Assembly (NCBI GenBank): GCA_913053845.1
Contig: CAJXGD010000006.1
Span: 713-64,712 of the forward strand
DNA: 64,000 nucleotides
Reading direction: 5' to 3'
Source: an uncultured bacterium
GTDB lineage: Bacteria > Bipolaricaulota > Bipolaricaulia > RBG-16-55-9 > DRJF01
Under the pieces are notes generated by a model that saw nothing but the letters and a program-made list of their open reading frames with translations, was not told the origin of the DNA and made no database searches. The translations under genes and the position numbers were made by a program. Numbering within the stretch: the stretch's first letter is position 1; each line of letters opens with the position of its first letter. This document shows, in pieces, positions 12,515-47,421 of the stretch.

Positions 12515-14158
12515 ATGATGATACTACAGACGATTATCGCTTTTTTTGTCGCGATCAGCTTTCTGGTCTTCATCCACGAGGGAGGACACTTCCTGGTGGC
12601 CAAATGGGTCGGCGTTTGGGTCCATCAGTTCGCCATCGGCTTCGGGCCGGCTTTCCTCCGCTGGCGGGGCCGGGAGACCGAATACTCGTTGCGCATCTTC
12701 CCTGCGGGCGGCTTCGTGCGCATGGCCGGCGATGAGGAACCGGCCGCCGGAGCCAAGAAAGGCTCTGAGCAAGAGCCGGCAGAAGAGCCAGCAGAGCCCC
12801 AGGTGCCTCCGGACCGACTCTTCTCCGCCAAGTCGCCCTGGCAACGCATGGCGATCATCGCCGCCGGGCCGACGATGAATATCATCGGTGCGGTGGTGAT
12901 GATCATCCTGCTGGCCGGTCTGGCCGGGGTGCCTAGCGTGCAGGTCGCCGGCTTCTCCGAGAACTCGCCCGCGGCGGCCGCAGCGATGCAGCCGGGGGAT
13001 ATAATCGTAGCCATCAACGGGCAGCAGATCTATTTCAGTCAACAGGTCAGCCAATTGATCCAGAGCGCCCAAGGCCGTCCACTGACCATCCAGGTGGCGC
13101 GCGGCGCGGAGCGCCGGCAGTTGACGGTCACGCCCTACTGGGACAAGGACCGCGGGCGCTATCTGATTGGCATACTGTTCAACGGCATCCTACTGAACCA
13201 GATCGGGCAACTGGCGACCGACGCGCCCTTGGCCCGGCAGGGCTTGCAGCGCGGCGATGTGATCCTCTCGGTCAACGGGCAACCGATTGATGACTGGTTC
13301 GAGTTTGCCCAGGGTCTGCGCGTGGCCTTGCAAGCCGGAGCAGCCCAGGCCCACCTGCGACTGCTGCGGGGCTCCCAGCTAGTGAAGCAAAGTTTGGACC
13401 TTTCCGCCGGGCCTGCCGATCTGGCTGGCTGGCTGAAGGGCGCCAATCCGGCGCTGATCTCGGTCTATCCCTCGGACAACGTGGTTCAAGAGATAGGTGC
13501 CAAATCGTTTCTGGCCCAACAGGGGCTGCAAAAGGGCGATCGCCTGCTGTCGGCCAATGGGGAGCCCTTGCACAACTTTGTAGACCTGATCTATGCCTTC
13601 GAGCGCACCGGCCAAACCGGGGGGCGGCTGGCGCTGAAGCTCCAGCGTGCAGGCGGCGAGCGGACGCTCCAGTTTAATATCCCTGACCGCAATCCTCAGG
13701 CGATCCTCAAGCTGCTAGGCGGGATGCAGTTGCAGTTGGCGCTGCGCAAACCCTCCGGCCTCTGGCAGAGTCTGGTGGTGGGCTTCCGCGAGACCTGGGA
13801 CATTCTGGTAACTTTCTATCAGGGGATGCGCTCCATCATCGTGGGTAAGACGCCGGCCAGCAAGGCGCTGAGCGGCCCGGTAGGAATAGCCAATATTCTC
13901 GGCAAGAGCCTGCAGCAAGGGCTGGTGAGCTTCCTCTTCCTGATCGCGCTGCTCAGCCTCAATTTGGGCATCATCAACCTGGTGCCCTTTCCGGCACTCG
14001 ACGGCAGCCGGATTCTCTTCATCTTCTACGAGCTGGTGCGCGGCAAGCCCATCCCGGCGGAGAAGGAAGGGTGGATACATGCGATAGGCTTCTTCGTGCT
14101 GATTGGCCTATTGCTGCTGATCACCTATAACGACATTTTGCGCCTGTTGGGCCAGTGA
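12515..14158 (+). CDS. rseP: RIP zinc metalloprotease (site-2 protease, RseP family) with PDZ domains
   Basis: 547 aa; HEGGH zinc motif in the first TM helix, two or more PDZ-like repeats in the middle, C-terminal LDG motif (PFPALDGSRIL). Confidence 0.8.
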   Translation: MMILQTIIAFFVAISFLVFIHEGGHFLVAKWVGVWVHQFAIGFGPAFLRWRGRETEYSLRIFPAGGFVRMAGDEEPAAGAKKGSEQEPAEEPAEPQVPPDRLFSAKSPWQRMAIIAAGPTMNIIGAVVMIILLAGLAGVPSVQVAGFSENSPAAAAAMQPGDIIVAINGQQIYFSQQVSQLIQSAQGRPLTIQVARGAERRQLTVTPYWDKDRGRYLIGILFNGILLNQIGQLATDAPLARQGLQRGDVILSVNGQPIDDWFEFAQGLRVALQAGAAQAHLRLLRGSQLVKQSLDLSAGPADLAGWLKGANPALISVYPSDNVVQEIGAKSFLAQQGLQKGDRLLSANGEPLHNFVDLIYAFERTGQTGGRLALKLQRAGGERTLQFNIPDRNPQAILKLLGGMQLQLALRKPSGLWQSLVVGFRETWDILVTFYQGMRSIIVGKTPASKALSGPVGIANILGKSLQQGLVSFLFLIALLSLNLGIINLVPFPALDGSRILFIFYELVRGKPIPAEKEGWIHAIGFFVLIGLLLLITYNDILRLLGQ

Positions 14159-14261
14159 AGCAGAGATCTGGAAATATCGTACAAGTTTAGCGTTCATCAG
14201 TCACGGGAATTCAACCTCCAGGGGTGACTGCTGGAGTTGAAGCGGTGGTAGCCTACCGGCG

Positions 14262-14624
14262 GTGGTAAGCACCTGCATCTTCGAGTTCATTCGGCAGAAT
14301 GTCAACCAAGATGCCGTTGATGTGATCTACTCTGACGAATGGGGCGGTTACCGGATGCTGAAGCGCTATATGCCTCATAGGATGATCCACCACCGCATCA
14401 CCTTCGTTGACGGTCCAATCCACACTAACACTATCGAGAGCTTTTGGTCGCTCCTGGAGCGTGGGATTGTTGGGGTGTTTCATCATATCTCTATCAAACA
14501 TCTTGATCGCTACCTCGCTGAGTTCTCTTGGCGGTTTGATAACCGCAAGGCTGAGGACATTCTCGATGCTATCATGTGCAACGTCGAAAGAAAGCACTCG
14601 GGATATGCAGAGCTAATCGCGTGA
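14262..14624 (+). pseudogene. IS1595-family (ISXO2-like) transposase, C-terminal fragment only
   Basis: 120 aa matching the C-terminal DDE_Tnp_IS1595 region (..HTNTIESFWSLLERGIVGVFHHISIKHLDRYLAEFSWRFDNRK..); the N-terminal ~200 aa of a full transposase are absent. Confidence 0.6.
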
Positions 14625-14885
14625 CTTGCTTGCTGCCCTAATACTGATGACGCCGACTAACGCCCCAATGATCAGTTCTACTGCGTTGGTGAGAACGATG
14701 ATTAGAGTGTTCTGGTTGGGAGTGGGACCCTTCCACCACTCATCCAATATGACAAGAAGGACGACGAGACCAACGGCGAGCCATTGCAGAAATCTAATTA
14801 CACTCTTAGCTTCTGGGGGAAGTGTCGGCTCGATGTCGGGACTCATATTGCTCTTTTGTATAGACTGTCGCGTGCTCATGATCAA
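14613..14885 (-). CDS. hypothetical small membrane protein
   Basis: 90 aa with two clear hydrophobic helices (LQWLAVGLVVLLVIL; LIIVLTNAVELIIGALVGVISI); competes with overlapping plus-strand ORF 14626-15072, which looks less protein-like. Confidence 0.3.
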   Translation of the reverse strand: MIMSTRQSIQKSNMSPDIEPTLPPEAKSVIRFLQWLAVGLVVLLVILDEWWKGPTPNQNTLIIVLTNAVELIIGALVGVISIRAASKSRD

Positions 14886-15239
14886 TAATGCTCTCAGTAT
14901 GAGGATACCGGAAAGAATGCCACCATATAAGCCCCATCATTTTCAGCATCTTAGCTATGGATATGAAGGGCCTAGCAATCACGGTATCGCCCTCTTGTCC
15001 CCTTGGGGAAGGCTTGGGGATGGGGTTCTGCAAGAGCGTGACCCGTCCATTGTAAGATGGTGGAGACTTTGAGAGTCCAGTCTCAATCTGATCGTATATT
15101 CCCATGAATGACGAGGCTTCATAGCAGATCCCCGACAAACTTGGAGAATCCGAAGCTGTGGTTAGTCCATCTCTTAGCAATGCAGTCCCATTTTTCATCT
15201 TGGCGGCGGTGCAGGTGGTGGCCCGCTATCCAGCAACCG

Positions 15240-15590
15240 CTAATGCTCCTCTTGATATTGGTTCCAATAGCTCTGAAGCACATCCATAATCTCTCGCATC
15301 GTTTGAACAGACACGTGGATTCGCGCGACACACTTGGCATCCACAGTAACATTGGGGTTCTCTCGAAGTATCTTGCGCTCCTCTGCGGTGCTCGCAAGTG
15401 GAGGATACAGCTCGAAGAACGAGAGAATGAAATCGGCATCGCTTGACTGAATAGCAAAATGCGTCGCGTATTTCCCTTCAAGACCATCAGGAAACACGAA
15501 TTCAATAGGCCTCATCACTTGAACAGCCTTCTTTTTCTGAACAACTTGGGAAGCTGTCCTTTCCTCTGCTGATTCAGCCATCCTAATCAC
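15240..15590 (-). CDS. DUF3467-family protein (hypothetical)
   Basis: 116 aa; blocks EGKYATHFAIQSSDADFILSFFELYP and AKCVARIHVSVQTMREIMDVLQSYWNQYQ match my recollection of the DUF3467 pattern (G.Y.N.A.I.HS.SEF.LDF ... A.V.SRI.LTP.HAKRLL.AL..NI.KYE). Confidence 0.45.
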   Translation of the reverse strand: MIRMAESAEERTASQVVQKKKAVQVMRPIEFVFPDGLEGKYATHFAIQSSDADFILSFFELYPPLASTAEERKILRENPNVTVDAKCVARIHVSVQTMREIMDVLQSYWNQYQEEH

Positions 15591-15598
15591 CTATAATT

Positions 15599-15628
15599 AG
15601 TATACTGCAGGCTGCTAGGCGTTGTCAA
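15599..15628 (-). promoter_or_regulatory. sigma70-like promoter (minus strand TTGACA-18-TATACT) for the DUF3467 gene; would give a leaderless or very short leader mRNA
   Basis: Plus-strand TGTCAA at 15623-15628 and AGTATA at 15599-15604. Confidence 0.3.
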
Positions 15629-15763
15629 TACGTACAAAGTTATGCCTCCCCTTCATAAACCTGACTAGCCCGACAGACATTCATCACCTCGCGCCTAGCA
15701 CGCTTGCAATCGGCGCTCCCGTGCGTCAAAAAGAATTTCCAAATCTCTGCTAAAATTGGGGCG

Positions 15764-15792
15764 TTGACAACTGGCCGGCTCGCGATTATCAT
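15764..15792 (+). promoter_or_regulatory. sigma70-like promoter for tRNA-Gln (TTGACA-17-TATCAT)
   Basis: Perfect -35 TTGACA at 15764-15769, 17-nt spacer, -10 TATCAT at 15787-15792, ~13 nt before the tRNA 5' end. Confidence 0.45.
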
Positions 15793-15805
15793 AAGGGCAG
15801 TTCAG

Positions 15806-15879
15806 TGGGAGATCGTCTAATGGCAGGACGACGGGTTCTGGTCCCGTTAGTGGGGGTTCGAATCCTCCTCTCCCAGCCA
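15806..15879 (+). tRNA. tRNA-Gln (anticodon CTG), CCA encoded
   Basis: Acceptor TGGGAGA/TCTCCCA (U1-A72 as in bacterial tRNA-Gln), anticodon stem ACGGG/CCCGT loop TTCTGGT (U33, CUG, G37), T arm GGGGGTTCGAATCCTCC, GCCA 3' end. Confidence 0.8.
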
Positions 15880-15890
15880 GAGTGATACTG

Positions 15891-17645
15891 ATGACCCAGT
15901 TAATCCAAGGAGAAGTCTTCGTCGTCGGTGATGACGTCAACACCGATGAGATCATCCCTGCCCACTACTGTACCACCACCGATTTAGACAGCCTGGGCAC
16001 CCACGCCCTGGAAGACCTGCACCCGAGCAAAAACCCCTCAGGTGAGCCCTTTCGCCCCGGACGGTATCGGCTGCTGATCGCCGGGGAGAACTTCGGCTGC
16101 GGCAGCTCGCGCGAGGTGGCCCCCATCGCCTTGGCCAAGGCTGGCATCGAGGTGATCTTGGCCAAATCGTTCGGCCGGATCTTCTATAATAACGCGATCA
16201 ATTGGGGCCTAGCCATCTCCCGCGCCCGCCACTTGGTCCCGGACGACGTCCGGACCGGCCAAACGGTCGAGATAGACTTGGATGATGAGACTTTCTGGCA
16301 GGATATGGCCCCTCTCCACCGCCAGATCATCCAGGCCGGGGGACTGACCGCCTTTAATAAGCAGGGCAAAGAGATCCATCAGCCCAGCGCCCCGCCGCGC
16401 CCCATGACCCTGGCAGAAAAGATCCTGGCCCGAGCGGCCGGGGTCCAGTATGTCCAGCCCGGGATGCTTCTCTCCGCCGAGGTGGATCGGGTGATCACCC
16501 ATGAGCTGACCCTGCCGGTCGCCGCCGAGCAGCTCTACCAGGCTTACGGAGCAGATTTTCGCGTTAAAGATACGGAGAAAATCCTGTTCGTCGCCGATCA
16601 CACCCTCCAGATTCCCCTGGTCCGCGACGATTGGGAATCCCAGCAGATGGTGCAAAAAGCCTTGGTCTTCGTCAAGGAGCAAAAGCTGCCCCACGCCTTC
16701 CTGCCCCCGGCGCCCTTCATCAGCCAGGGTATTTGTCACGTGCTCTTTCCGGAAAAAGGGCTCATCAGACCGGACACGCTGGTAGTGGGGACCGACTCGC
16801 ATAGCTGCACCTACGGAGCCTTTGGCTGCTTCGCCTTTGGCATCGGCAACACTGATTTAACCGAGATCATGGTCTCCGGCAAGCTCTTGGTGAACGTGCC
16901 GCAGACGGTTCAAGTGGAGCTCAGCGGCCGTCTGCCGCGCGGGGTCTACGCCAAAGATGTAATTTTATATATCCTAAGCGAAGTGGGACAGAACGGTTTT
17001 ACCAACTCGGTGGTGGAGTTCAGCGGACCGGCCTTGGAGTTCCTCAGCAGCGACGATCGCTCGACCATCGCCAACATGACGGTGGAAGGTGGGGCAAGTT
17101 GTGGGATCTTTCCCGTAGGCCGGTTGCGCTCCGACCCCGATGCCGTATATCTGAAAAAGCTTTCCTTCGATCTCGCTGGGCTGGTACCCTACGTGGCCCC
17201 GCCCTACAAGCCGGATAACGGGATGCCGCTGAGTGAGCTGGACCATCCGGTGAAGATAGACACGGCCTGGGTGGGTAGCTGCACCGGAGGCAAGCTGGAG
17301 GATGTGGCGGCGGCGGCAGCTGTGATGAGCGGCCGGCGAGTTGCATCCGGAGTGCGTTTCATACTCTCGCCGGCGACGATGGGCATCTGGGAGGAGGCCG
17401 GCCGCCGGGGCTATTCGCGCGAGCTGCTGGCCGCCGGAGTGCAACTCTTCCCCTCCTCCTGCGGGGCCTGCATCGCCATGGGTCCGGGGGCGCTCAGCGA
17501 TGAGCAGCAGGTGGGCGTCTTCGCCTCCAATCGCAACTTCAAGGGGCGCGCGGGCAAGGGGCGAGTTTACCTGGCTTCACCGGCCACGGTGGCCGCTTCG
17601 GCGATCGCCGGTGAGATCGCTGACCCGCGGCAGTATTTGGCTTAG
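15891..17645 (+). CDS. aconitase-family hydro-lyase with fused small (LeuD-like swivel, N-terminal) and large (LeuC-like, C-terminal) domains
   Basis: N-terminus VVGDDVNTDEIIP..GENFGCGSSRE (LeuD/swivel signature); C-terminal part with VGTDSHSCTYGAFG, VGSCTGGKLED and ASNRNFKGRAG Fe-S cluster-binding motifs of the LeuC/aconitase catalytic domain. Start taken at the ATG (MTQLIQ); an upstream GTG at 15882 is possible. Confidence 0.7.
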   Translation: MTQLIQGEVFVVGDDVNTDEIIPAHYCTTTDLDSLGTHALEDLHPSKNPSGEPFRPGRYRLLIAGENFGCGSSREVAPIALAKAGIEVILAKSFGRIFYNNAINWGLAISRARHLVPDDVRTGQTVEIDLDDETFWQDMAPLHRQIIQAGGLTAFNKQGKEIHQPSAPPRPMTLAEKILARAAGVQYVQPGMLLSAEVDRVITHELTLPVAAEQLYQAYGADFRVKDTEKILFVADHTLQIPLVRDDWESQQMVQKALVFVKEQKLPHAFLPPAPFISQGICHVLFPEKGLIRPDTLVVGTDSHSCTYGAFGCFAFGIGNTDLTEIMVSGKLLVNVPQTVQVELSGRLPRGVYAKDVILYILSEVGQNGFTNSVVEFSGPALEFLSSDDRSTIANMTVEGGASCGIFPVGRLRSDPDAVYLKKLSFDLAGLVPYVAPPYKPDNGMPLSELDHPVKIDTAWVGSCTGGKLEDVAAAAAVMSGRRVASGVRFILSPATMGIWEEAGRRGYSRELLAAGVQLFPSSCGACIAMGPGALSDEQQVGVFASNRNFKGRAGKGRVYLASPATVAASAIAGEIADPRQYLA

Positions 17646-33760: not shown

Positions 33761-33837
33761 GGCGATAAAGCGCACTAAAACACAGGGAAACTATTAGGTA
33801 GCCACACTCTGAGATATTTAGTCAGGGGGTTAATCCT

Positions 33838-34176
33838 ATGCAATACGGCTTTAAAAAACAAAAAAGTGATCCTGAAACTGGGAACACCTCAATGAATATC
33901 CGTCGCCTTGTACTTGATGTGGACAAAAGCTTTTCTCTCCCCTCGCTTCTGGACATCGCCAGGAGTATAGACACGGTCGCCGGGGTAGAGGCCTTTAATA
34001 TCACGGTTGAGGAGATAGATATGGAGACGGTGGGCACCGTCATAACGGTCGAGGGCAACAACATCGATTATGCCGGTCTGGTAAAGGCCATCGATGCAAC
34101 TGGCGCGGTAGTGCATTCAGTTGATGAACTGGTAATTGGAAGTCACATGGTCGAATTTGTCAGGCGCCATCGGTGA
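33838..34176 (+). CDS. DUF211-family protein (hypothetical)
   Basis: 112 aa; IRRLVLDVDK..AGVEAFNITVEEIDMETVGTVITVEGNNIDYAGLVKAIDATGAVVHSVDELVIG fits my recollection of the DUF211 pattern (RRLVLDVLKPH..VEGV..V.V.EVD..TE...ITVEG..ID...I...IE..G..IHSIDEVV.G). Confidence 0.45.
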   Translation: MQYGFKKQKSDPETGNTSMNIRRLVLDVDKSFSLPSLLDIARSIDTVAGVEAFNITVEEIDMETVGTVITVEGNNIDYAGLVKAIDATGAVVHSVDELVIGSHMVEFVRRHR

Positions 34177-36461: not shown

Positions 36462-36926
36462 ATGGACATCGAAGCCCTCGCAGCCAAATTACACCCCGTC
36501 CTATCTACCCGGCCGGAAGTGCGACTGGCCTATCTATTCGGCTCGGCTGCCCAGGGCCGCACAAAAAATAAGCTCAGCGATCTTGATATCGCCGTGCTGG
36601 TGGACGAGGACTATTACGAAGCTCACAAGGGAGGCTTTGCCTATGAAGCGGATTTGATCAACGATCTAGTCCAGGCACTGCGAATGAACAGGATAGACCT
36701 CGTCCTGCTGCACAAATCTCCACCCCTGCTGGCTCACGAGGTCATCCGCAAGGGCCGGTTGCTCTTCTGTCGCGACGCTCACGAGCGTGTCATCTTTGAG
36801 GTGGAGGTTATGAAGCGCTACTTGGATACCCAGCCGCTACGTCAGATCAAGCGCCAGTATCTCTACGAACGCATCGAGCGCGGCGCATTCAGCGAGGTGA
36901 AGCTACCATTGTCAACCGAGAGGTAA
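36462..36926 (+). CDS. minimal nucleotidyltransferase (MNT/MntA-like antitoxin of a HepT/MntA-type TA pair)
   Basis: 154 aa; GS..x9-13..DxD pol-beta NTase motif (LFGSAAQG..LSDLDIAVLVD). Confidence 0.75.
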   Translation: MDIEALAAKLHPVLSTRPEVRLAYLFGSAAQGRTKNKLSDLDIAVLVDEDYYEAHKGGFAYEADLINDLVQALRMNRIDLVLLHKSPPLLAHEVIRKGRLLFCRDAHERVIFEVEVMKRYLDTQPLRQIKRQYLYERIERGAFSEVKLPLSTER

Positions 36927-36958
36927 TCGAGGCGCACCTGGGGAACATAGCGCTTCAT

Positions 36959-37336
36959 GTGGCCCATCTGAAGTCCTTGCGTACTCGTTCTCTGGTGGAA
37001 TTCTCGCGGGATTGGCTAGCCTTTTACGCTGCCGAACGAGGCATCCAAATTGCCGTGCAGAATCTGTTGGACATTGGTGCGCATATCCTGGCCGATTTTG
37101 GGGATTCACAATGGGACGAATACAAGCAAATCCCGGTGGAGCTGGCCCGCTATGGCGTGGTTCCTCAGGAGTACGTAGAACGAGCTCAGCGGATGGCCGG
37201 AATGCGTAACCTGTTGGTCCATCAGTACACCGAAATTGACGTAGATCAAGTCTATGAGGTGCTCAAGAACCATCTGGATGACTTCGACCGCTTTGCTGCT
37301 TATGTTAAGGCCTACTTGGATCGGTCACCACCTTGA
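36959..37336 (+). CDS. HEPN-domain protein (HepT/DUF86-like toxin)
   Basis: 125 aa from a GTG start (the reading frame is open from 36902, so the true start may overlap the MNT stop); Rx4-6H motif RNLLVHQY near the C-terminus. Confidence 0.75.
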   Translation: MAHLKSLRTRSLVEFSRDWLAFYAAERGIQIAVQNLLDIGAHILADFGDSQWDEYKQIPVELARYGVVPQEYVERAQRMAGMRNLLVHQYTEIDVDQVYEVLKNHLDDFDRFAAYVKAYLDRSPP

Positions 37337-39128: not shown

Positions 39129-41339
39129 TCAGCGCCTGACTGCCAGCTTCTGCACCCCGCTGCTGACCGTCTGCCCCTGGGCGGTGTCAACCGTGACCAG
39201 ATAGAGATAGACCCCCGTGGCCACCGGGGCGCCCAGCCGATCCTGCTCTGACCAGACCAGCGCTCGCCTGATCGTGGCGCTGAAGCTGAAGACCACCCGC
39301 CCGGCCAGGTCGAATACCTGCAAGTGCCAGCCCCTCCCAGCCGCGCCGGGGGCCATAAGCGCCGACCAGAGATATCCTGAGGCCCGGCGCTGCGGTCTGA
39401 GCGCGGCCAGCTCGGCCCGCAGGGTTCGGCCCTGGCCGACCACTATCAGGCTGTCCCCCTCGACCGGCCGGCCATTGATCGTGCCCTTTAAGCGGTAGCG
39501 TCCTGGCTTGATCTCCGAGGAGAGCACCAGCGCGTAACGCAGCCAGATCGTCCGGCCCGGCGCGGCGGCCGGCCAACTCCAGGCCGAGCTTCCGGGGTCA
39601 AACTCTCCCCCGCCATTGTCCAGCGGCACGATGCGAAAACCCGCAGGCGGCTTCTCCTGCAGTCGCAGGCCGCCGAAGCGCCCCAGTGGCATTTGCAAAT
39701 TGATCGAGACGACCAGTCGCTCGCCAGGTCGGACAGCGGAGCCCGTATGCTGAACGTGACGTGCGGCGCTGGGCCAACCTAGGATCAAGTCTAGCTCGCC
39801 GGCCCCATAGGTGACGTCGGGACCGGGCGGGCCCAGATCGGTGGCGTCCCCGCGCAGAGCGGCCTTCAGTTGGGCGGTGCTCCAGCCGGGATGCTGCGAG
39901 AGCAGCAGTGCGGCCGCTCCGGCCACGTGCGGCGCGGCCGCCGAGGTCCCCAAGAAACCGCCGAATCTATTAGAGAAGAAAAGATTGTCTACCCCATCGG
40001 GTCCGACTAAATCCGGCTTGATGCGCCCATCGAAGGTGGGCCCCAGGGCGCTGAAGCTCTCCTGAGGGCCGCTGGACCAGCGCTCGCGATTGACCGCTCC
40101 CACGGCCAGCGTGCAGCTGCAGTCGGCCGGAGCGACGAGGCTGCCGTGGGGTATGGGCTTCTCAAAATATGCTCCCGACTCGATCTGAAAGAGCCGCAGC
40201 CACATCGGCCGCGTGGCCCAGTGGGCGCGGACCCGCACGAAATAGACACCGGGATGGTCAGCCACATATTGCAGCTCCTCGCGTGGTGGCTGGGTCCCCG
40301 TCTGGCGATTCTGAGAGCTGGCCAGCACCTTGCCACGGGCATCGGTGAGATAGAGATCGTAATCCTGATCGGTCGTCGGCCAGTCGTTCCAGACCAGCAC
40401 CAGGTCAATCAGGCCGCCAAGCGGCACTTTCAGCGCTAGCGACTGCTTCCCCAGGGCGAACTCGGCCCAACCGTCGTGGTTGCTGTCGCGGAAGCGGCCT
40501 ATCCAGTGCGCCTGTGCTTGATTGCCCGCCGCGTTGACCCAAAGGATCCCCGCGGCACGAGCTCGACGCGCTATCTCATTGATCAAACCCGTCCCGTCGT
40601 CGAAATCGGTATCGAACCAACCGAGCGAGCAATTGATCACCCGAACACCTAGCCGAATCGCATCATCCACGGCGTTCTCTAAGTCAACCTCATCGCCGAT
40701 CTTCATCAGATATAGCTGAGCACGCGGGGCCATCTCATGGACGATCTCGGCCACGGCGCTGCCATGCTCGCCGCCGGTCAGCAGTCCTTTGCCGGTATAG
40801 TCTTTTTTGAAGACGATCGCGCCGGCCGCCAGCACCCGGTGCTTCACCGCCCAGTAGAGCCCGGAGAAGCCGGCATCTATGATGGCTACCTTGACCCCTT
40901 GACCTTGGAAACCCTGGCTCTGGAAGAGCAGGCCACCGGTGGGCAGCAGCCCTTGGCTGAGCTGCAACTGACCCAGCGGCGCCCAGCGGTAGGGCCGACG
41001 GATATATCTGATGCCGGGGACACGGGTGGCGATCTCATTCAAGCGATCCAGCGGCAGGCGGGCGCGCAGCAGGTCGGATGAGCGCGCCTCGATCTGGGCG
41101 CCCAACTCTCGCAAGGCCGCTTGATCTATCGCGCCGCTCGCGCCTCCCAGGGGTTCGATGATCGCCGTGACAGAAGCACCCGGCCGGCTTGTGGCAGCCA
41201 GCCGGGCCAGCGAGCTCTCCAATTTGCCGCTCGGCGGAGGAGGGCCGGCTAAAGCGATGAAGGAGAGCGCAGCAAAGAGCAGCAGTAGGGGCGAAGCATT
41301 CGCAAGCCAAGAACGGCGTATCTTCTTGAATGCTTGCAC
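39129..41339 (-). CDS. subtilisin-like serine peptidase (S8) with T9SS-type C-terminal sorting-domain-like tail
   Basis: 736 aa; catalytic D (VAIIDAGF), H (HGSAVAEIV), S (GTSAAAPHVAGAAALL); C-terminal ~80 aa LQVFDLAGRVV..GVYLYLVTV..GQTVSSGVQKLAVRR shared with the three downstream paralogs; GTG start. Confidence 0.8.
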   Translation of the reverse strand: MQAFKKIRRSWLANASPLLLLFAALSFIALAGPPPPSGKLESSLARLAATSRPGASVTAIIEPLGGASGAIDQAALRELGAQIEARSSDLLRARLPLDRLNEIATRVPGIRYIRRPYRWAPLGQLQLSQGLLPTGGLLFQSQGFQGQGVKVAIIDAGFSGLYWAVKHRVLAAGAIVFKKDYTGKGLLTGGEHGSAVAEIVHEMAPRAQLYLMKIGDEVDLENAVDDAIRLGVRVINCSLGWFDTDFDDGTGLINEIARRARAAGILWVNAAGNQAQAHWIGRFRDSNHDGWAEFALGKQSLALKVPLGGLIDLVLVWNDWPTTDQDYDLYLTDARGKVLASSQNRQTGTQPPREELQYVADHPGVYFVRVRAHWATRPMWLRLFQIESGAYFEKPIPHGSLVAPADCSCTLAVGAVNRERWSSGPQESFSALGPTFDGRIKPDLVGPDGVDNLFFSNRFGGFLGTSAAAPHVAGAAALLLSQHPGWSTAQLKAALRGDATDLGPPGPDVTYGAGELDLILGWPSAARHVQHTGSAVRPGERLVVSINLQMPLGRFGGLRLQEKPPAGFRIVPLDNGGGEFDPGSSAWSWPAAAPGRTIWLRYALVLSSEIKPGRYRLKGTINGRPVEGDSLIVVGQGRTLRAELAALRPQRRASGYLWSALMAPGAAGRGWHLQVFDLAGRVVFSFSATIRRALVWSEQDRLGAPVATGVYLYLVTVDTAQGQTVSSGVQKLAVRR

Positions 41340-41356
41340 GAATGCTTCGCCCCTAC
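41285..41356. repeat. perfect 19-bp inverted repeat (AGTAGGGGCGAAGCATTCG / CGAATGCTTCGCCCCTACT) spanning the S8 gene start
   Basis: Arms at 41285-41303 (inside the signal-peptide codons) and 41338-41356 (start codon, RBS region and 3' end of the upstream gene), with a ~34-nt loop; same arm sequence as the element at 10306-10349. Confidence 0.5.
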
Positions 41357-41358
41357 TC

Positions 41359-43113
41359 TTATCTGAGGACGACCAGCTTTTTGACCCGACTGCTGAAGCT
41401 CTGTCCGTCCGCGCCCCGGACCGTCACGATATAGAGATAAACCCCGTTGGCCAGCGGCCGACCGGAGCGATCCAGCGGCCGGAAACGCAACCGGTTGCCG
41501 CTCCCTTGTAGGTCTGCGAGGGGACGGCCGTTCAGGCTGAAGAGCTGTAGCCTGACGTCGGCGATCCCCGCTCCTCGGACCTGCAATTCCGCCCGGCCAC
41601 CTGACAGCGAGCGCAGGCCGATGGAGCTTATCGCTAGAGGTGCCGCTGCCGCTGTGGGCTCTCTCATCATGCTCTGGCTGACTCCCAGGAAGCGGAGCAG
41701 GTCGCCCCAGAGGCCACCTACTGCCAGACTGGGCGGGCCGGGGGGCAGAAGCGAATTGTCCCAGCGGTTACGGTCCAGACCGGCGCTGAATAGCTTGCAA
41801 CTACCGGCCACTTTGACCCAGTAGCCCTTAAAATCATTGAGCGGCTCGCTGGGATCAATCGGCGCGTACTTGCTGCCATCGTACCACCAGGGCCCCGATT
41901 GCAGTTGACAGCCGCGAAAGATCGAGCCAATACGATTCCAGCTCTTGGAGGAGGAGATCAGATTCCAACCCTGATGCAACTCCAGATCCTGACGGACATT
42001 GGTGCCGGTCGCCTGCAGGGTGCAGGCGTTATCCACCTTGAGCCAATAACCCTTGGCCGGCTCCAGCTTGTTGGCCTGGATATAGCGGCTGCCGGTCCAC
42101 TCCCAAGGGCCGCTGGCGAACTGACAGGTGCCCTTCAGATCAGCCGGTGCAATGGTGCCCACCGGTGAGGAGATCATGTTCCAGCCGGCGTCGAGCCGCA
42201 AGATCAAGCCGGAGATCGGCACTGGAGGAGGCGGCGGCGCACCGGAGGTGGGCGGGCCGGACTCGCTGATGATGCTAAAACTGTCGGTGAGTGGGCGGTC
42301 ACTCAGGAAATTCGAGCCACAGTTGATCGGGATATCCCGTTGGCAAGGGCCGTTCTCTTTCAAAGGCGTATCGTCGGCCACCGCCAGCCGCAGCGAGACG
42401 TTAATCCGGCCGGCTGGAGCGTTGGAGCCGATGTCCACAGTGAAGTAGAGCAGCAGCGGCGTCGTCTCGCCACCCAGGCCGGCGGCGTAGACCGGCTGTA
42501 GGTTTTGGCTGGTCATGATCCAATCTTGCTGGCGCCCGAAGCGGGCGACGGCCTGCCCATTGCTGTTGGTAAATTGAACCGGCACCCGGGCTATCAGCTC
42601 GTTGGCCTGGAAGAGGATGCCATCTCCACCTCCACTAAAAGGAGGGAGAGGGAAGCCATCGGTGTAGACACGCAAAGTCTTGAGTGCCTTGGCGCCCGGT
42701 CCGCTAAAGGTGATCACCCCGCCCTTGATGCCGGTGGCCAGGCCATCGGCTCCGCCGGTCTTGGCCGGCTTGGGCGTGCAGCCTAAGATCGCCAAGCCGC
42801 CGGAGATGGCCATCGGCGTGCCCGGCAGAGAAGGGACGATCTTAGCGGTAGTATTATTCAGCACTCCGCCGTCACAGATGCCCACCACAATGGCCAGCGC
42901 CTCATCGGTGCCCGGGTTGATCTGTCGCGCTTGATCCCGTGTCAGCAGGTTGGTCAGGTGAATCACCTGGATGTCGCTCTCCGCTAGGCCGCTGCCGGCC
43001 AGATAGCCTGGTAAAGGCGCCGCTGAGGCCCTCCCGCCGCCGGTCCCAAATCCCACCAGCAGCAGGACGGACGACAGCAGCGCCACCAGAACAGTCCGCA
43101 TGCTATACTTCAT
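41359..43113 (-). CDS. secreted repeat protein, paralog 1 (shared N-terminal domain, 2 Trp/Cys-rich modules, T9SS-type CTD-like tail)
   Basis: 584 aa; signal peptide; N-terminal domain ~65% similar to paralog 2; two modules of the form GWNMISSPV..C..GPWEW.G..Y..A..LEPAKGYWLKV..C; CTD ..GVYLYIVTVRGADGQSFSSRVKKLVVLR. Confidence 0.6.
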   Translation of the reverse strand: MKYSMRTVLVALLSSVLLLVGFGTGGGRASAAPLPGYLAGSGLAESDIQVIHLTNLLTRDQARQINPGTDEALAIVVGICDGGVLNNTTAKIVPSLPGTPMAISGGLAILGCTPKPAKTGGADGLATGIKGGVITFSGPGAKALKTLRVYTDGFPLPPFSGGGDGILFQANELIARVPVQFTNSNGQAVARFGRQQDWIMTSQNLQPVYAAGLGGETTPLLLYFTVDIGSNAPAGRINVSLRLAVADDTPLKENGPCQRDIPINCGSNFLSDRPLTDSFSIISESGPPTSGAPPPPPVPISGLILRLDAGWNMISSPVGTIAPADLKGTCQFASGPWEWTGSRYIQANKLEPAKGYWLKVDNACTLQATGTNVRQDLELHQGWNLISSSKSWNRIGSIFRGCQLQSGPWWYDGSKYAPIDPSEPLNDFKGYWVKVAGSCKLFSAGLDRNRWDNSLLPPGPPSLAVGGLWGDLLRFLGVSQSMMREPTAAAAPLAISSIGLRSLSGGRAELQVRGAGIADVRLQLFSLNGRPLADLQGSGNRLRFRPLDRSGRPLANGVYLYIVTVRGADGQSFSSRVKKLVVLR

Positions 43114-43199
43114 GTTGACCTCCCCTTGGATTCATGTTGAGGGATAAATGCCTCGCAGCTTCTTTATACCTCAACCGGATAAGGGGAGGCACGACGGTC

Positions 43200-45425
43200 C
43201 TAACGTAATAGTAGGAGTTTCCGCACCTCGCTGCTGGTCGCCTGTCCGTCCGCGCCCTTGACCGTCACGATATAGAGATAGACCCCGTTGGCCAAGGGTC
43301 GCCCCTGCCGGCCGAGGGTGGCCAGATGCAACCGGTTGCCTCTCCCGCGCGCCTGGGCGACCAACGTGCCGGCCAGATCATAGAGGCGCAGCTCACTGTG
43401 CCCGATGCCTCTGCCAAGCACCTGCAGCTCAAGGCCTGACCCTACCTGACTGAGCCGAACGCCTTCCAGACGCAAGGGCACAGCCTGCTGTGCTATAGAG
43501 CTGAATTCAGAGGCCGGTGCTGCGCCCTTGCCGGACAGTCCTTGGCTGTTCACGTTGCAGCCCTGGCTCACCTTGGCCCAGTAGCCCTTAAAGCCGTTTA
43601 GCGGCGTGCCAGGGGCGATCTGCTTATACTGCTTGCCATTCCACCACCAGGGACCGGAGAGCAGCGTGCAGCCGCCGGTATTGAGCTGGTTCCAGCTCCC
43701 GGAAGATGAGATCAGATTCCAGCCGGGGCTCAGGGCCAGGCTCTGGGGAAAGCTCCCTGACGAAGGTGGAGTTTGCAGGGTGCAAGGCACTCCAACCTTG
43801 ACCCAATAGCCCTTAGCCGACTCCAGGGTAGATGCTTGCTCGTAACGGGTTCCGGTCCACCACCAGGGGCCGCTGCTGAAGAGACAGTCGCCCTGCACTG
43901 CCGAGAGGGGCACCGAGCGGATCGGAGAGGAGATCATGTTCCAGCCGACATGTAATTTGAGCGTGGGGCTCAAGCCGCCGGGAGGGGCGGGGGGTTGCGA
44001 TTGTAGGGGCGAAGCATTTTCAACTGGCAGCCGGGGTATGGGGTTGAGCTCAGGGACCCATGCTGCGCCCTTATCTTGCCCCTGCGCGCTCTGGCTGCTG
44101 ACGCTGCAACCGGCCCCGACCTTGACCCAATAGCCCTTGAAATCCTCCATGGAGGTGCCGGAAGCCACCTGCTGGTACCGGGTGCCGTCGTACCACCAGG
44201 GACCGGAGAGCAGCGTGCAGCCACCGGTATTAAGCTGGTTCCAACTCCCAGATGACGAGATCAAATTCCAGCCGCCGACCAAGCTTAGACTCTGCGGGGC
44301 GTTGCTGCCTGAGGCCTGCATGGTGCAAGCTCCGGCCACTTGGACCCAATAGCCCTTGGCCGGCTCGATGGTGCCCGCCTGCTGGTAGCTGGAGCCGCTC
44401 CACCACCAGGGGCCACCGGTGACGCTGCAGTTGCCTTGCAGCGAGCTGAGCGGCACCGAGCCCACCGGCGAGGAGATCATGTTCCAGCCGGCGTGCAGAC
44501 TCAATGAGAGCCCTCCGCCTGGCGGCGCCGGCGGCGGGGTTCCGCCACCTGGAGCGGCCCCGCCGACGATCTCGAAGCTGTTCATCTCCGGGCCGCTCTT
44601 CATGAAGTTCGAGCCACAGTTGATTCCTAACAACAGGAACCGAGCACAGATGCCGCCGGCTCCTTGCGCGGTATCATCGCCGGCGCCAACTCCCAAGGCG
44701 ACGTTGACACGGCCGCTGGTGGCATCTTGCCCGATGTCCACGGTGAAGTAAAGTAACTCCGGTCGCGTCTGACCGTTTACCCCAAATGCAACGACGGGTG
44801 CGCCGTTGCGGGCGGAGAGGATCTGCTCTTGAGTGCGACCGAACTGGGCGATCGCCTCGCCGGTGCCCGTATTGAACCGGGCGGTCACCTGTTGGATCAG
44901 CTCCGCCGGCTCAAAGAGCCGCCCATTGCCGCCGCCCTTGTAGGGACCTACCGGTGGCAGGACCGGGGCATCCACATACATACGCACGGTGCGAATGAAC
45001 CTGGCTCCCGGTCCGCTGAAGACGAGAATCGCGCTGTTGACTCCGGTGGCTAGCCCGTCCGAGCCACCTGTCAAGGCGCCTCCTGAGGGTATGCAGGGAA
45101 TGGCTGCCAGGCCGCCGGCGATGGTCGCGGTGGCTCCGGCGACCGGCACCAGCAGGGTGGCGCTGGTGTTGGCCAGTACGCCCCCGTCGCAGATGCCGAC
45201 CATGATGGCCAGCACCCCGCTGGTGCCAGGTGTGATCTGGGTACCGCGATTTCGGGTGAGCAGTCCGGAGATATGAATCGTCTGAATGTCGGACTCGGCG
45301 TTGCCGCTGCCGTTGGAGAGATTCGGAATGGGTGAGGCCCCGGCAGTTGCAGCCGGACCGAATGAGGTAATGATTAGTGCCAATACTACGAAGGCTAAGC
45401 TGAACGCCTTGAGTTTGAGATTCAT
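43200..45425 (-). CDS. secreted repeat protein, paralog 2 (4 Trp/Cys-rich modules, T9SS-type CTD-like tail)
   Basis: 741 aa; signal peptide; the same N-terminal domain as paralog 1; four modules (two near-identical pairs separated by Pro/Gly linkers); CTD ..GVYLYIVTVKGADGQATSSEVRKLLLLR. Confidence 0.6.
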   Translation of the reverse strand: MNLKLKAFSLAFVVLALIITSFGPAATAGASPIPNLSNGSGNAESDIQTIHISGLLTRNRGTQITPGTSGVLAIMVGICDGGVLANTSATLLVPVAGATATIAGGLAAIPCIPSGGALTGGSDGLATGVNSAILVFSGPGARFIRTVRMYVDAPVLPPVGPYKGGGNGRLFEPAELIQQVTARFNTGTGEAIAQFGRTQEQILSARNGAPVVAFGVNGQTRPELLYFTVDIGQDATSGRVNVALGVGAGDDTAQGAGGICARFLLLGINCGSNFMKSGPEMNSFEIVGGAAPGGGTPPPAPPGGGLSLSLHAGWNMISSPVGSVPLSSLQGNCSVTGGPWWWSGSSYQQAGTIEPAKGYWVQVAGACTMQASGSNAPQSLSLVGGWNLISSSGSWNQLNTGGCTLLSGPWWYDGTRYQQVASGTSMEDFKGYWVKVGAGCSVSSQSAQGQDKGAAWVPELNPIPRLPVENASPLQSQPPAPPGGLSPTLKLHVGWNMISSPIRSVPLSAVQGDCLFSSGPWWWTGTRYEQASTLESAKGYWVKVGVPCTLQTPPSSGSFPQSLALSPGWNLISSSGSWNQLNTGGCTLLSGPWWWNGKQYKQIAPGTPLNGFKGYWAKVSQGCNVNSQGLSGKGAAPASEFSSIAQQAVPLRLEGVRLSQVGSGLELQVLGRGIGHSELRLYDLAGTLVAQARGRGNRLHLATLGRQGRPLANGVYLYIVTVKGADGQATSSEVRKLLLLR

Positions 45426-45448
45426 CTATGTTCCCCCTTGATTATACG

Positions 45449-45565
45449 CCGGGGATTGAAATCCCCGGCTACGGTGAGGCATAAAACCCCTACGGGGTTC
45501 CAGGTCGTGAACCCTCGTGAGAGGGTTTCCCTGACGTCACGTAGCCGGGAAATTCATTTCCCGGT
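45449..45565. repeat. structured intergenic element, copy A (four hairpins plus a closing long-range helix)
   Basis: Hairpins CCGGGGA-TTGAAA-TCCCCGG, CCCC-TA-GGGG, AACCCTC-GTGA-GAGGGTT, CCGGGAAA-TTCA-TTTCCCGG; CCGGCTACG pairs with the distal CGTAGCCGG; ~80% identical to copy B at 61361-61474 with compensatory changes. Confidence 0.45.
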
Positions 45566-45568
45566 CTC

Positions 45569-47197
45569 CTATCGCAGCACGACCAGCTTCTTGACCTCAC
45601 TGGTGATCATTTGTCCGTCCGCGCTCTTGACAGTCACGATGTAGAGATAGACACCATTGGCCAGCGGTCGTCCCTCGCGACTCAAAGCCATCAGGCGCAG
45701 CCGGTTCCCTGTCCCTTGGGCCTGCACGATCAACCGGCCGGCCAGAGTGTAGAGACGCAGCTCGGTGCTCTCGATGGCGCTGCCAGCCACTTGCAAGCGG
45801 ATGCTGGAACCCTGAGCGCTCAAGCGCACGCTTTGCAATTGCAAGGGTGCGGCGCCGGCTGAGGGAGGCCTGGGGAACCCTCCAAATGCAGGGGGCATGC
45901 CGTTACTCCTCTCCTGAACCACCGCCGACTGGCTGCTCACGGTACAACCGCCGCCCACTTTCGCCCAATAACCCTTGAAGCCCTCCATCGGCGTGGCAGG
46001 AGGCACCTGCTGATACCGCGTGCCATCGTACCACCAGGGGCCGGAGAGCAAGGTGCAGCCTCCAGTGTTCATCTGGTTCCAGCTCCCGGATGAAGATATC
46101 AGGTTCCAGCCGCTCACCAAGCTCAGGCTCTGCGGAGATGAGCTGCCGCCCGCCTGCATGGTGCAAGGGCTACCCACTTTGACCCAGTAGCCTTTGGCCG
46201 GCTCCAATACAGAAGCCAACTGATAGGCGGTACCATTCCACTCCCAGGGGCCGCCGCTGAAGGAGCAGTTGCCCTGCAGTGAAGAGATAGGTGAGGAGCT
46301 GACCGGGGTGGAGATCATGTTCCAACCGGCGTGCAAGCTCAGTGAGAGTCCACCTGCGCCCGGCGGAGGTGGCGGAGCCCCGCCACCCGATCCACCACCA
46401 GGCGCGGTTCCACCGATGATGTGCAGCGTGATATTACTCCCTTGCGGATTGGCCGAGGCGCCGAAGCTGTCGCTCACCCGCGCCCCGCCTACCGGTCCGC
46501 CTCCGGCCAGCGCTCCGGGGATGTCGCCGGCCACCGCTTCCAGTTGTAGGGCAAAGTCCGAGCCGCTCACCGGGTTGGGTCCAATCTTGACCACGGCCAA
46601 CAGCGAGACGGCACAGAAGTTAGCCCCTGCCACCCCCACCGTCCTGCACAATGTTCCTCCTCCCACCGAAGTGAGCGTAAAGACTGGACTGGCCCCACCG
46701 TTGGAGAAGAGCGCCTTGCCGGCGTCCAAATCGGCACCGGTGTAGGTTCTGCCCACCGGCAGGTCAATGCCGGGGTCGAAGCGTCCGTTGAAGTTGCTGT
46801 CCTGATAGATGGTCATCTCTTGGATATCGGCATCGCGGGCGTTGGTAATGGTCGTGGTGATCAGCGCGCCCATCACGTTGAGCGGCCACATACTCCCTGG
46901 GGTACAGTTGCCTGATGCCACGACGCCGGTGTGGGCCACGTAGTCATTGGCCAGCACCCAGGCGCCGGCCACCGCCGTGCTATTGGGACTGACGGTGAGC
47001 GAAGAGGGTATGCCGGTGGTGGTGAACTGATCGGTGGCCAGCACTGCGCCGGTGGGACAGCCGCTGGCGGGGACGAGCCCCGGCAAGCTGAGGTAGGCCG
47101 AGCCGTTCACCCCCAACAGGAAGGTCGCCAGCAGTCCAACCAGCAAAGCAGCCATCGGCCATCTCAGTCGGGAACGGTCTATCATCTTGAGCCTCAT
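45569..47197 (-). CDS. secreted repeat protein, paralog 3 (distinct N-terminal domain, 2 Trp/Cys-rich modules, T9SS-type CTD-like tail)
   Basis: Start set at MRLKMIDRSRLRWPMAALLVGLL (signal peptide; the ORF track extends to 47290); different N-terminal domain but the same module pair and CTD ..GVYLYIVTVKSADGQMITSEVKKLVVLR. Confidence 0.6.
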   Translation of the reverse strand: MRLKMIDRSRLRWPMAALLVGLLATFLLGVNGSAYLSLPGLVPASGCPTGAVLATDQFTTTGIPSSLTVSPNSTAVAGAWVLANDYVAHTGVVASGNCTPGSMWPLNVMGALITTTITNARDADIQEMTIYQDSNFNGRFDPGIDLPVGRTYTGADLDAGKALFSNGGASPVFTLTSVGGGTLCRTVGVAGANFCAVSLLAVVKIGPNPVSGSDFALQLEAVAGDIPGALAGGGPVGGARVSDSFGASANPQGSNITLHIIGGTAPGGGSGGGAPPPPPGAGGLSLSLHAGWNMISTPVSSSPISSLQGNCSFSGGPWEWNGTAYQLASVLEPAKGYWVKVGSPCTMQAGGSSSPQSLSLVSGWNLISSSGSWNQMNTGGCTLLSGPWWYDGTRYQQVPPATPMEGFKGYWAKVGGGCTVSSQSAVVQERSNGMPPAFGGFPRPPSAGAAPLQLQSVRLSAQGSSIRLQVAGSAIESTELRLYTLAGRLIVQAQGTGNRLRLMALSREGRPLANGVYLYIVTVKSADGQMITSEVKKLVVLR

Positions 47198-47319
47198 ATC
47201 TGCCTCCTTTGCGTAGAGTTGATGATCACGAGATTCGGCATGGAGCATTCTAGCAGAGAGATGGGGAGAGGACCAAATAGCTAAAATCAAGAGCAGAGGC
47301 TACCTATGCGGTGCCCCGC

Positions 47320-47349
47320 TTGACCCTGCTCCGGGATTTCCACTATACT
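47320..47349 (+). promoter_or_regulatory. candidate sigma70-like promoter (TTGACC-18-TATACT) for the tRNA-binding protein gene
   Basis: -35 at 47320-47325, -10 at 47344-47349. Confidence 0.3.
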
Positions 47350-47421
47350 GCGCTTGTCCCGCCGCCGCCCGGCGGCGCGCGAAGGAGGTCCGGTCAAAGT
47401 CAAATACCTTGGCAATTCCTC

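Follow-up and report, generated by a model that had tools for sequence, protein, structure and literature searches.

Surface proteins with recombination-prone, identical tandem repeats include the streptococcal alpha C/Rib proteins, enterococcal Esp, staphylococcal Bap and Aap/SasG, and the yeast FLO/ALS proteins. Repeats of the alpha C/Rib type typically share ~95 to 100% DNA identity over whole units, and their number varies between strains. Among the paralogous outer-surface genes babA/babB of Helicobacter and opa of Neisseria, concerted evolution or segmental gene conversion is known. Here we analyze three tandem genes, designated P1, P2, and P3, at positions 41359 to 47290 of a 64-kb stretch of DNA (the window) from an uncultivated Candidatus Fraserbacteria bacterium. 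An earlier note on this DNA had proposed that near-identical, in-frame repeats within and between these genes are recombination substrates for the gain and loss of protein modules. The feature is real but ordinary: it consists of diverged repeats in a family of paralogous, predicted surface proteins in which recombination and fusion occasionally rearrange the parts. The best explanation overall, which we consider probable, is that the repeats are the conserved cores of protein modules, that P2 arose by an old gene fusion, and that recombination is rare.

The locus differs from the alpha C/Rib-type systems in that its repeat units share 68% identity, exact matches do not exceed 31 bp, no variation between strains is seen, and a single pair of modules is usual. 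The features of a variable tandem repeat are not found in P2, whose units are not ~95% identical and whose unit number is constant in the few assemblies compared. Like babA/babB and opa, the genes are tandem paralogs with homologous 3' modules behind unrelated N-terminal domains. Two relatives extend this likeness: in genome A the module region of one gene has been replaced by that of its paralog, and in lineage C a 3' part appears to have come to stand on another N-terminal domain. Unlike in babA/babB and opa, the events are old (13 to 16% DNA divergence has accumulated since) and rare, there are no silent cassettes, and the strain-specific tract that was found has no local donor.

Organization of the three genes

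Open reading frames (ORFs) and their translations place P1, P2, and P3 in tandem on the minus strand. Each product has a hydrophobic, signal-peptide-like N terminus, an N-terminal domain (N-domain), a proline-rich linker, and ~72-residue modules, and each ends in a C-terminal domain (CTD) of ~85 residues. The three products are predicted to be secreted or surface proteins. The modules are of two types, a (GWNMISSP..C..GPWWW..KGYWVKV..C) and b (GWNLISSSGSWNQ.NTGGCTLLSGPWWYDG..KGYWVKV..C), and their order is a-b in P1, a-b-a-b in P2, and a-b in P3, as in the counts of two, four, and two modules reported previously. No module copies were found in the 64-kb window beyond these three paralogs. Nor were silent, truncated cassettes for antigenic variation of the pilE/pilS, vlsE, or msp2 type found, all three paralogs being complete ORFs with a start, a signal-peptide-like N terminus, and a CTD.

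P1 (41359 to 43113; 584 amino acids), of the X1 type, has a signal peptide, an X-type N-domain, a proline-rich linker, one a-b pair, and a CTD. Its modules begin at amino acids 310 and 382, the unit was mapped to 41773 to 42210, and its orthologs are P0006 and P0007. P2 (43200 to 45425; 741 amino acids), of the X2 type, has an N-domain of the same X type as that of P1, followed by unit 1 (a1 and b1; 44076 to 44513), an inter-unit linker (43971 to 44075), unit 2 (a2 and b2; 43527 to 43970), and the CTD (43200 to 43460; LANGVYLYIVTV...). The closest unit to unit 1 is that of P3, at 78% amino acid and 76% nucleotide identity, and unit 2 shares 59 to 66% amino acid identity with all other units. 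P3 (45569 to 47197), of the Y type, has a Y-type N-domain unrelated to those of P1 and P2, one a-b pair (mapped to 45914 to 46351), and a CTD. It is 542 amino acids long from MRLKMIDRS; the mechanical ORF reaches 47290, and the protein P0011 is identical from the MRLKMIDRS start. The same CTD is found in P1 (41359 to 41619), in P3 (45569 to 45829), and in the product of the adjoining S8 peptidase gene (39129 to 41339, minus strand; CTD at 39129 to 39389), a neighbor that is kept in all related loci.

Extent and identity of the repeated DNA

The repeated DNA described in the earlier note is present. The regular expression given for a recurring stretch of ~80 bp matches exactly at 43644 to 43724 (copy A, the core of module b2; antisense of GWNLISSSGSWNQLNTGGCTLLSGPWW) and at 44193 to 44273 (copy B, the core of b1), and a third copy lies at 46031 to 46111 (copy C, the core of the P3 b module). 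Over 81 bp, copy B is identical to copy A at 74 positions (91%), and copy C is identical to A at 69 (85%) and to B at 67 (83%). The longest exact match, 31 bp, is between 43643 to 43673 and 44192 to 44222. A second family of repeats, which proved equally real, represents the core (GWNMISS) of the a modules, with GAGGAGATCATGTTCCAGCC exact at 42167, 43927, and 44470 and a fourth copy with two mismatches at ~46308. Its members lie in P1 (42160 to 42204), P2 a2 (43920 to 43964), P2 a1 (44463 to 44507), and P3 (46301 to 46345). The exact core of this family is 20 to 25 bp long, and the P1 and P2 a1 copies (42167 and 44470) share a 25-bp exact run. The repeats within P2 are in frame and separated by approximately the 540 bp noted before: the b modules are 549 bp apart and the a modules 543 bp apart, both multiples of 3. 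All of the repeated 20-mers of the 64-kb window (44 of 44 positions) are within 41300 to 47350 and none is outside, and thus chance is ruled out as a source of the repeats.

The description of the repeats as near-identical is too strong. A sliding 60-nucleotide dot plot found no segment of 60 nucleotides or more above 93% identity, and merged segments were 76 to 81% identical. Whole a-b units are 60 to 74% identical in DNA, and outside the cores, identity between copies is 60 to 76%; unit 1 and unit 2 of P2 are 67.8% identical in nucleotides and 62 to 64% identical in amino acids. Where two units have the same amino acid, they use the same codon in 53 to 58% of cases, versus the 41% expected from codon usage alone. 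Synonymous sites between module copies are near saturation. The 81-bp stretch codes for 27 residues (GWNLISSSGSWNQLNTGGCTLLSGPWW), four of them tryptophan; the 27 residues are identical in both P2 copies, and the P3 copy differs at one (L/M). The DNA of the cores is alike because the protein is invariant there, including the four tryptophans with their single codon. The repeats are old, diverged paralogous coding repeats with a strongly constrained core and have not been recently homogenized.

Two other features of the repeats were considered and set aside. The antisense small ORFs to which the earlier note drew attention (e.g., 44419 to 44751, 42128 to 42448, and 46269 to 46745) share the peptide EEIMFQPA, but they are simply reverse frames of DNA that codes for GWNMIS in a genome with 62% GC. 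Mutagenesis by a diversity-generating retroelement was also rejected; on the coding strand, T/C differences account for five of the seven mismatches between the 81-bp copies, in every relative the repeats correspond to homologous protein modules, and no search was aimed at a reverse transcriptase.

Origin of the four-module gene

When the linker and unit 2 of P2 were used as a query, the best matches were stand-alone short genes coding for P0036 (322 amino acids), P0177 (317 amino acids), P0178 (288 amino acids), P0179 (305 amino acids), and P0180 (364 amino acids), with P0181 also among the closest homologs. The short genes are all built alike, from a signal peptide followed by a leader (for example, QPPEPPGAFGPTLQLHAGWN), a single a-b pair, and a CTD. 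Four related genomes, designated A (contig L001), A' (L050), B (L006), and E (L049), have a short gene directly upstream of the P1 ortholog, which is followed by the S8 peptidase gene. The gap between the short gene and the P1 ortholog is 59 to 111 bp in L050, L006, and L049. In the window, this position is occupied by the 3' end of P2, which is 86 bp upstream of P1. The X2 orthologs of genomes A and B (P0003 and P0004) have one a-b pair each and a CTD of their own.

The linker of P2, which contains the putative fusion junction, has a AAWVPELNPIPRLPVENASPLQSQ part and a PPAPPGGLSPTLKLH part. Its stretch SQSAQGQDKGAAWVPELNPIPRLPVENASPLQSQ is colinear with the linker that follows module b in the X2 and Y proteins, up to the first strand of the CTD (...PPGPPTESAPLTLR), and PPAPPGGLSPTLKLH then matches the mature N terminus of the short genes. 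Within unit 2, the a module has residues (PT, R, GDC, and WWWTGTRYE) that are diagnostic for the short genes, and the b module resembles those of the X2/Y type, a combination also present in the stand-alone P0177. Because the linker, the a module of unit 2, and the syntenic position all match a stand-alone short gene, a gene fusion is indicated. Thus, the earlier suggestion that recombination through the repeats produced the counts of two, four, and two is not supported, as unit 2 corresponds to a separate short gene in four relatives. These sequence comparisons indicate that P2 most likely arose long ago when an X2 gene fused with a downstream short paralog and is not the product of an internal duplication through the repeats. 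A deletion would have fused the X2-type gene, which provided the N-domain and the first pair, to the short paralog, which provided the second pair and the CTD. Such a deletion may have begun where the X2 CTD starts and ended in the signal-peptide cleavage region of the short gene, with the loss of the X2 CTD and the signal peptide.

This arrangement resembles fusions of adjacent tandem paralogs by deletion in that two complete neighboring genes in relatives correspond to one gene here and in that the linker keeps both the upstream post-module linker and the downstream mature N terminus. It differs in that the putative junction is in the proline-rich linker rather than in the homologous modules; no junction homology was evident in the DNA at this divergence. 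The pattern of two, four, and two modules, which resembles repeat slippage, is better explained by the fusion of neighboring paralogs, which calls for caution when dot plots are read.

An ancient tandem duplication within P2 that generated unit 2 from unit 1, followed by divergence, with fission giving rise to the short genes elsewhere, would also yield two pairs in one gene. The two units are homologous throughout, their b cores are 91% identical over 81 bp, and module b of unit 2 has diagnostic residues of the X2/Y type. However, fission would require the de novo acquisition of a CTD and a stop by the upstream half and of a start and a signal peptide by the downstream half, and both halves are complete in four genomes. 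In addition, the linker of P2 keeps all of the post-b linker as far as a remnant of the first CTD strand, and the proline-rich leader and the a2 module match the mature N termini of the short genes. Fission is the less parsimonious polarity, and we regard duplication followed by fission as unlikely.

The 81-bp patch raises a further possibility, which is that the 5' half of an X2/Y-type b module was copied by gene conversion onto that of the former short gene, either before or after fusion. Unit 2 is indeed a mosaic of a short-type a module and X2/Y-type residues in b. The copies share 16 of the 23 degenerate codons of the patch, versus an expectation of ~41%, and a GENECONV-like run/permutation test found nine consecutive agreeing variable sites between P2 unit 1 and unit 2 (P = 0.04, uncorrected for six pairs), the other pairs not being significant. 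No pair was significant after correction for the six pairs, however, and constraint on the amino acids alone yields most of the identity. In addition, the stand-alone P0177 of genome E has the same mosaic, so that P2 unit 1 need not be involved. A relic of gene conversion is conceivable but only as a tentative alternative to constraint on the module core.

Module number among strains and recombination potential of the repeats

The in-frame loss of modules envisaged in the earlier note is geometrically right, as a crossover between the b cores 549 bp apart would remove exactly one pair. The expectation that the repeats are good recombination substrates did not hold. RecA-dependent recombination has a minimal efficient processing segment of ~20 to 30 bp, and the frequency of recombination drops steeply with divergence. 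A 31-bp exact block within 81 bp at 91% identity is barely at this minimum, so that the in-frame loss of 549 bp could happen but would be expected only rarely. No variant with the 549-bp deletion was seen in the available assemblies. We infer that recombination between the 31-bp blocks is rare.

The statement that the family is actively varying was likewise not borne out. Contig L004 (VAOU01008773.1), which is conspecific with the window and stops 206 bp upstream of P2, is 99.59% identical to it over 11,753 bp, and L021, also conspecific, matches it at 99.18% over 6,103 bp; neither alignment has a gap. P0184, from a Logan contig of a lineage ~90% identical to the window, has the same order as P2 (b1, linker, a2, b2, CTD) through to the stop codon. 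No change in the length of P2 was found among the three conspecific assemblies (the window, L004, and L021) and the ~90% lineage. The proposal that the repeats are active substrates, now adding and removing pairs and thereby explaining the counts of two, four, and two as well as length variation between strains, can point to the in-frame spacing, to the 31-bp exact block, and to differences between lineages: X2 has four modules here and two in genomes A and B, and Y has two here and at least three in lineage C. It can also point to P2 unit 1 as a hot spot of single-nucleotide polymorphism (SNP) among conspecific strains. We nevertheless consider it very unlikely, given the lack of any insertion or deletion in the alignments above, the same architecture in the ~90% lineage, the divergence of unit 1 from unit 2 with synonymous sites near saturation, and the correspondence of unit 2 to a separate gene in relatives. 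Moreover, only one pair is found in 164 of 173 family proteins, which indicates that arrays do not expand. As a recombination hot spot the locus is of little importance, the repeats being diverged and no variation in module number having been seen.

The sole apparent length variant, P0002 on L003, was rejected as a polymorphism. L003 is a chimeric scaffold, and its internal duplication is contradicted by the independent contig behind P0184. Three pieces make up its positions 1 to 2312: first an unrelated Lumazine_bd_2 gene, then one segment at 90% and another at 97% identity to the window, the latter repeating 345 bp of the former.

The chimera, together with the breaks of short-read assemblies in this region, might suggest that the repeats or the four-module structure are themselves artefacts, produced when paralogs were collapsed or wrongly joined during assembly. 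L051 and L052, Logan contigs that come from separate sequencing runs, both start at window position 43672, inside the 31-bp exact repeat, and the end of L004 is also close to P2. We interpret the common start as a break of the de Bruijn graph at a repeat of about the length k, Logan contigs presumably having been built with k = 31. These contig starts show that both copies of the repeat were present in those samples. The structure of P2 is identical and free of gaps in three independent assemblies, and P0184 spans b1 to the stop codon, which makes an assembly artefact extremely improbable.

Variation among the three strains was concentrated in P2 unit 1, with 4.8 variable sites per 100 bp, versus 0 in unit 2 and the CTDs and at most 1.4 in other regions. 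This unit has a window-specific divergent tract of 225 bp (44113 to 44337), which overlaps copy B and has 17 substitutions at which L004 and L021 agree. The changes in the tract are mostly synonymous, and eight of them create A on the plus strand; over all of P2, the window and L004 differ in 25 codons, 21 of them synonymously. This pattern is better accounted for by the import of homologous but diverged DNA than by local mutation. No donor was found when P2 unit 2, the P3 b and P1 b modules, L002, and L003 were compared, and in the core of 13 sites (44223 to 44289), the window allele matches P2 unit 2, P3, or P1 no better than the alternative allele does. The paralogs of the window thus include no donor for the strain-specific segment; donors beyond the window are possible. 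Further SNP clusters are unique to the window (39426 to 39446), to L021 (39268 to 39345 and 45063 to 45180), or to L004 (44469 to 44568), and those at 39426 to 39446 and 39268 to 39345 are in or beside the CTD-coding 3' end of the S8 peptidase gene. The occurrence of short SNP clusters across the locus suggests short recombination imports. Because similar short clusters occur elsewhere, the tract at 44113 to 44337 would appear to reflect ordinary recombination within the population.

Recombination between paralogs over evolutionary time

The proposal that paralogous modules recombine holds in one respect: recombination reshapes the family across species but is not seen as present-day change in length. 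For example, the X2 unit of genome A is 87% identical in nucleotides to the Y unit of the same genome (the same codon in 78%) and 83% identical to the Y unit of genome B (67%), but only 76% identical to its own ortholog, the X2 unit of genome B (63%). Over the 3' 860 nucleotides, the X2 and Y genes of genome A are 83.8% identical, versus 74 to 77% for orthologs. The X2 gene of genome A is thus nearer to the Y gene of that genome than to its own ortholog, which indicates that its module region was replaced from the Y paralog.

A second case is found in lineage C (L002). Its Y-type gene, P0015, follows P3 of the window at 80 to 96% identity to the end of module b and, beyond a poorly conserved stretch, follows the leader that precedes a2 in P2 and a2 itself at 84 to 89%. 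This switch from P3 to P2 just after module b implies that the module complement changed between sister lineages. Contig k141_776870 (ENA ERZ27249683), the source of L002, ends at L002 2262 to 2311 in an Illumina adapter (AGATCGGAAGAGCGTCGTGTAGGGAAAGAGTGT...), which creates a false stop in P0015.

Comparisons across these lineages show that module regions have occasionally been swapped between paralogs, by homologous recombination or gene conversion. The locus provides evidence that tandem Fraserbacteria paralogs exchange their 3' module regions over evolutionary time. It is possible to go further and view the locus as a set of surface proteins shuffled by recombination, with N-domains, module pairs, and CTDs exchanged between paralogs and strains and a ligand-binding pair diversified in the process. 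The conversion in genome A, the P3/P2 recombinant of lineage C, and the 225-bp tract in P2 unit 1 are consistent with such shuffling, which as a general description of the locus we regard as doubtful.

In a group of related proteins (P0008, P0009, P0010, and P0018 to P0033; L001 2180 to 3586 and L006 4540 to 5952), an X or Y+X N-domain and the CTD are kept, and the GWN pair is replaced by a calcium-binding or dockerin-like segment (DVDHNDKIDDPEIV...). In this protein family, an entire middle domain can take the place of another.

Several observations weigh against conserved module cores, an old fusion, and rare recombination as the full account. Unit 2 as a whole is no clearer in its affinity to the short genes (54 to 66% amino acid identity) than to the X2/Y units (59 to 66%), and the short-gene signal is limited to the a module, the linker that precedes it, and synteny. 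The nearest relative of the P2 CTD is the CTD of P3 in the window (66%), with the short-gene CTDs at 51 to 60%. The choice of fusion over fission was decided by parsimony alone. L002, from which the recombinant of lineage C is known, is a k141 short-read contig cut by an adapter and is possibly chimeric. Furthermore, stability in length was judged from only three near-complete conspecific assemblies, and these are consensus sequences in which low-frequency variants within populations are invisible.

Distribution of the modules and the C-terminal domain

The protein family is small and mosaic, with 35 matches to P2. The module is a Cys-containing beta module of ~72 residues (GWNxIS ... C ... 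GPWW ... KGYWVKV ... C). In a census of the family, exactly two modules were found in 164 of 173 proteins, and four only in the P2 cluster and two others, which makes the a-b pair the canonical unit. A scan of metagenomes with P2 peptide patterns found no relative, a metagenome scan with the module profile yielded relatives that were at most 55% identical, and a scan of genomes found only distant module carriers at 25 to 46% identity.

A profile built from the four units of the window matched 5439 cluster representatives at E ≤ 1e-3 among 1.84 billion proteins. Carriers include Nanohaloarchaea, Parcubacteria, Aenigmatarchaeota, Ignavibacteriales, Calditrichia, and others, and some of the distant carriers that were checked also have PKD, He_PIG, S-layer, or peptidase M64 domains. 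The a-b pair is thus a widespread extracellular domain, found in PKD, He_PIG, S-layer, and peptidase contexts in the candidate phyla radiation, DPANN, Ignavibacteria, Calditrichia, and other groups. No model or structure in Pfam, NCBIfam, or PDB matched the module (model mf1a92860f3c8; profile A1). The a-b pair, with no family model or structural relative, could be curated as a new domain family.

The CTD is similar to the sorting domains of the type IX secretion system (T9SS; TIGR04183 Por_Secre_tail and PF13585 CHU_C) in being a C-terminal beta domain of ~85 residues that is common to several secreted proteins, including a protease. Its matches to Por_Secre_tail, CHU_C, and the C termini of PorU/PorZ are weak, with C-terminal scores of 13 to 18 bits versus cutoffs of 23 to 27. 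For TIGR04183, P2 scored 13.5 bits and P3 17.6 bits against a cutoff of 23, and scores for CHU_C were 14 to 16 bits against a cutoff of 27. The CTD profile matched the C terminus of PorU in PDB, but only at E = 0.036. The CTD therefore appears weakly T9SS-CTD-like, below the curated cutoffs.

Other features of the window

A search of the Fraserbacteria literature found no mention of these proteins. The host name comes from contig DRJF01000011.1 (GCA_011052375.1), which is 99.2% identical to the window and carries a protein named by NCBI as Candidatus Fraserbacteria bacterium.

Approximately 111 bp of the window (33763 to 33873) are seemingly missing from L051, which is otherwise 99.9% identical there (9791 to 9896) and has a 9-nucleotide overlap at the junction; this is a small strain insertion/deletion polymorphism. 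At ~36462 to 37336 (L004 8296 to 9170), a HepT-like/nucleotidyltransferase (MNT-type) pair lies downstream of a PKD/FG-GAP gene, as read from precomputed Pfam matches on the conspecific contig L004. Positions 14001 to 16000 have a GC content of 0.505, versus ~0.62 elsewhere; this segment, with a tRNA at 15806 to 15876 at its end, may be foreign or noncoding.

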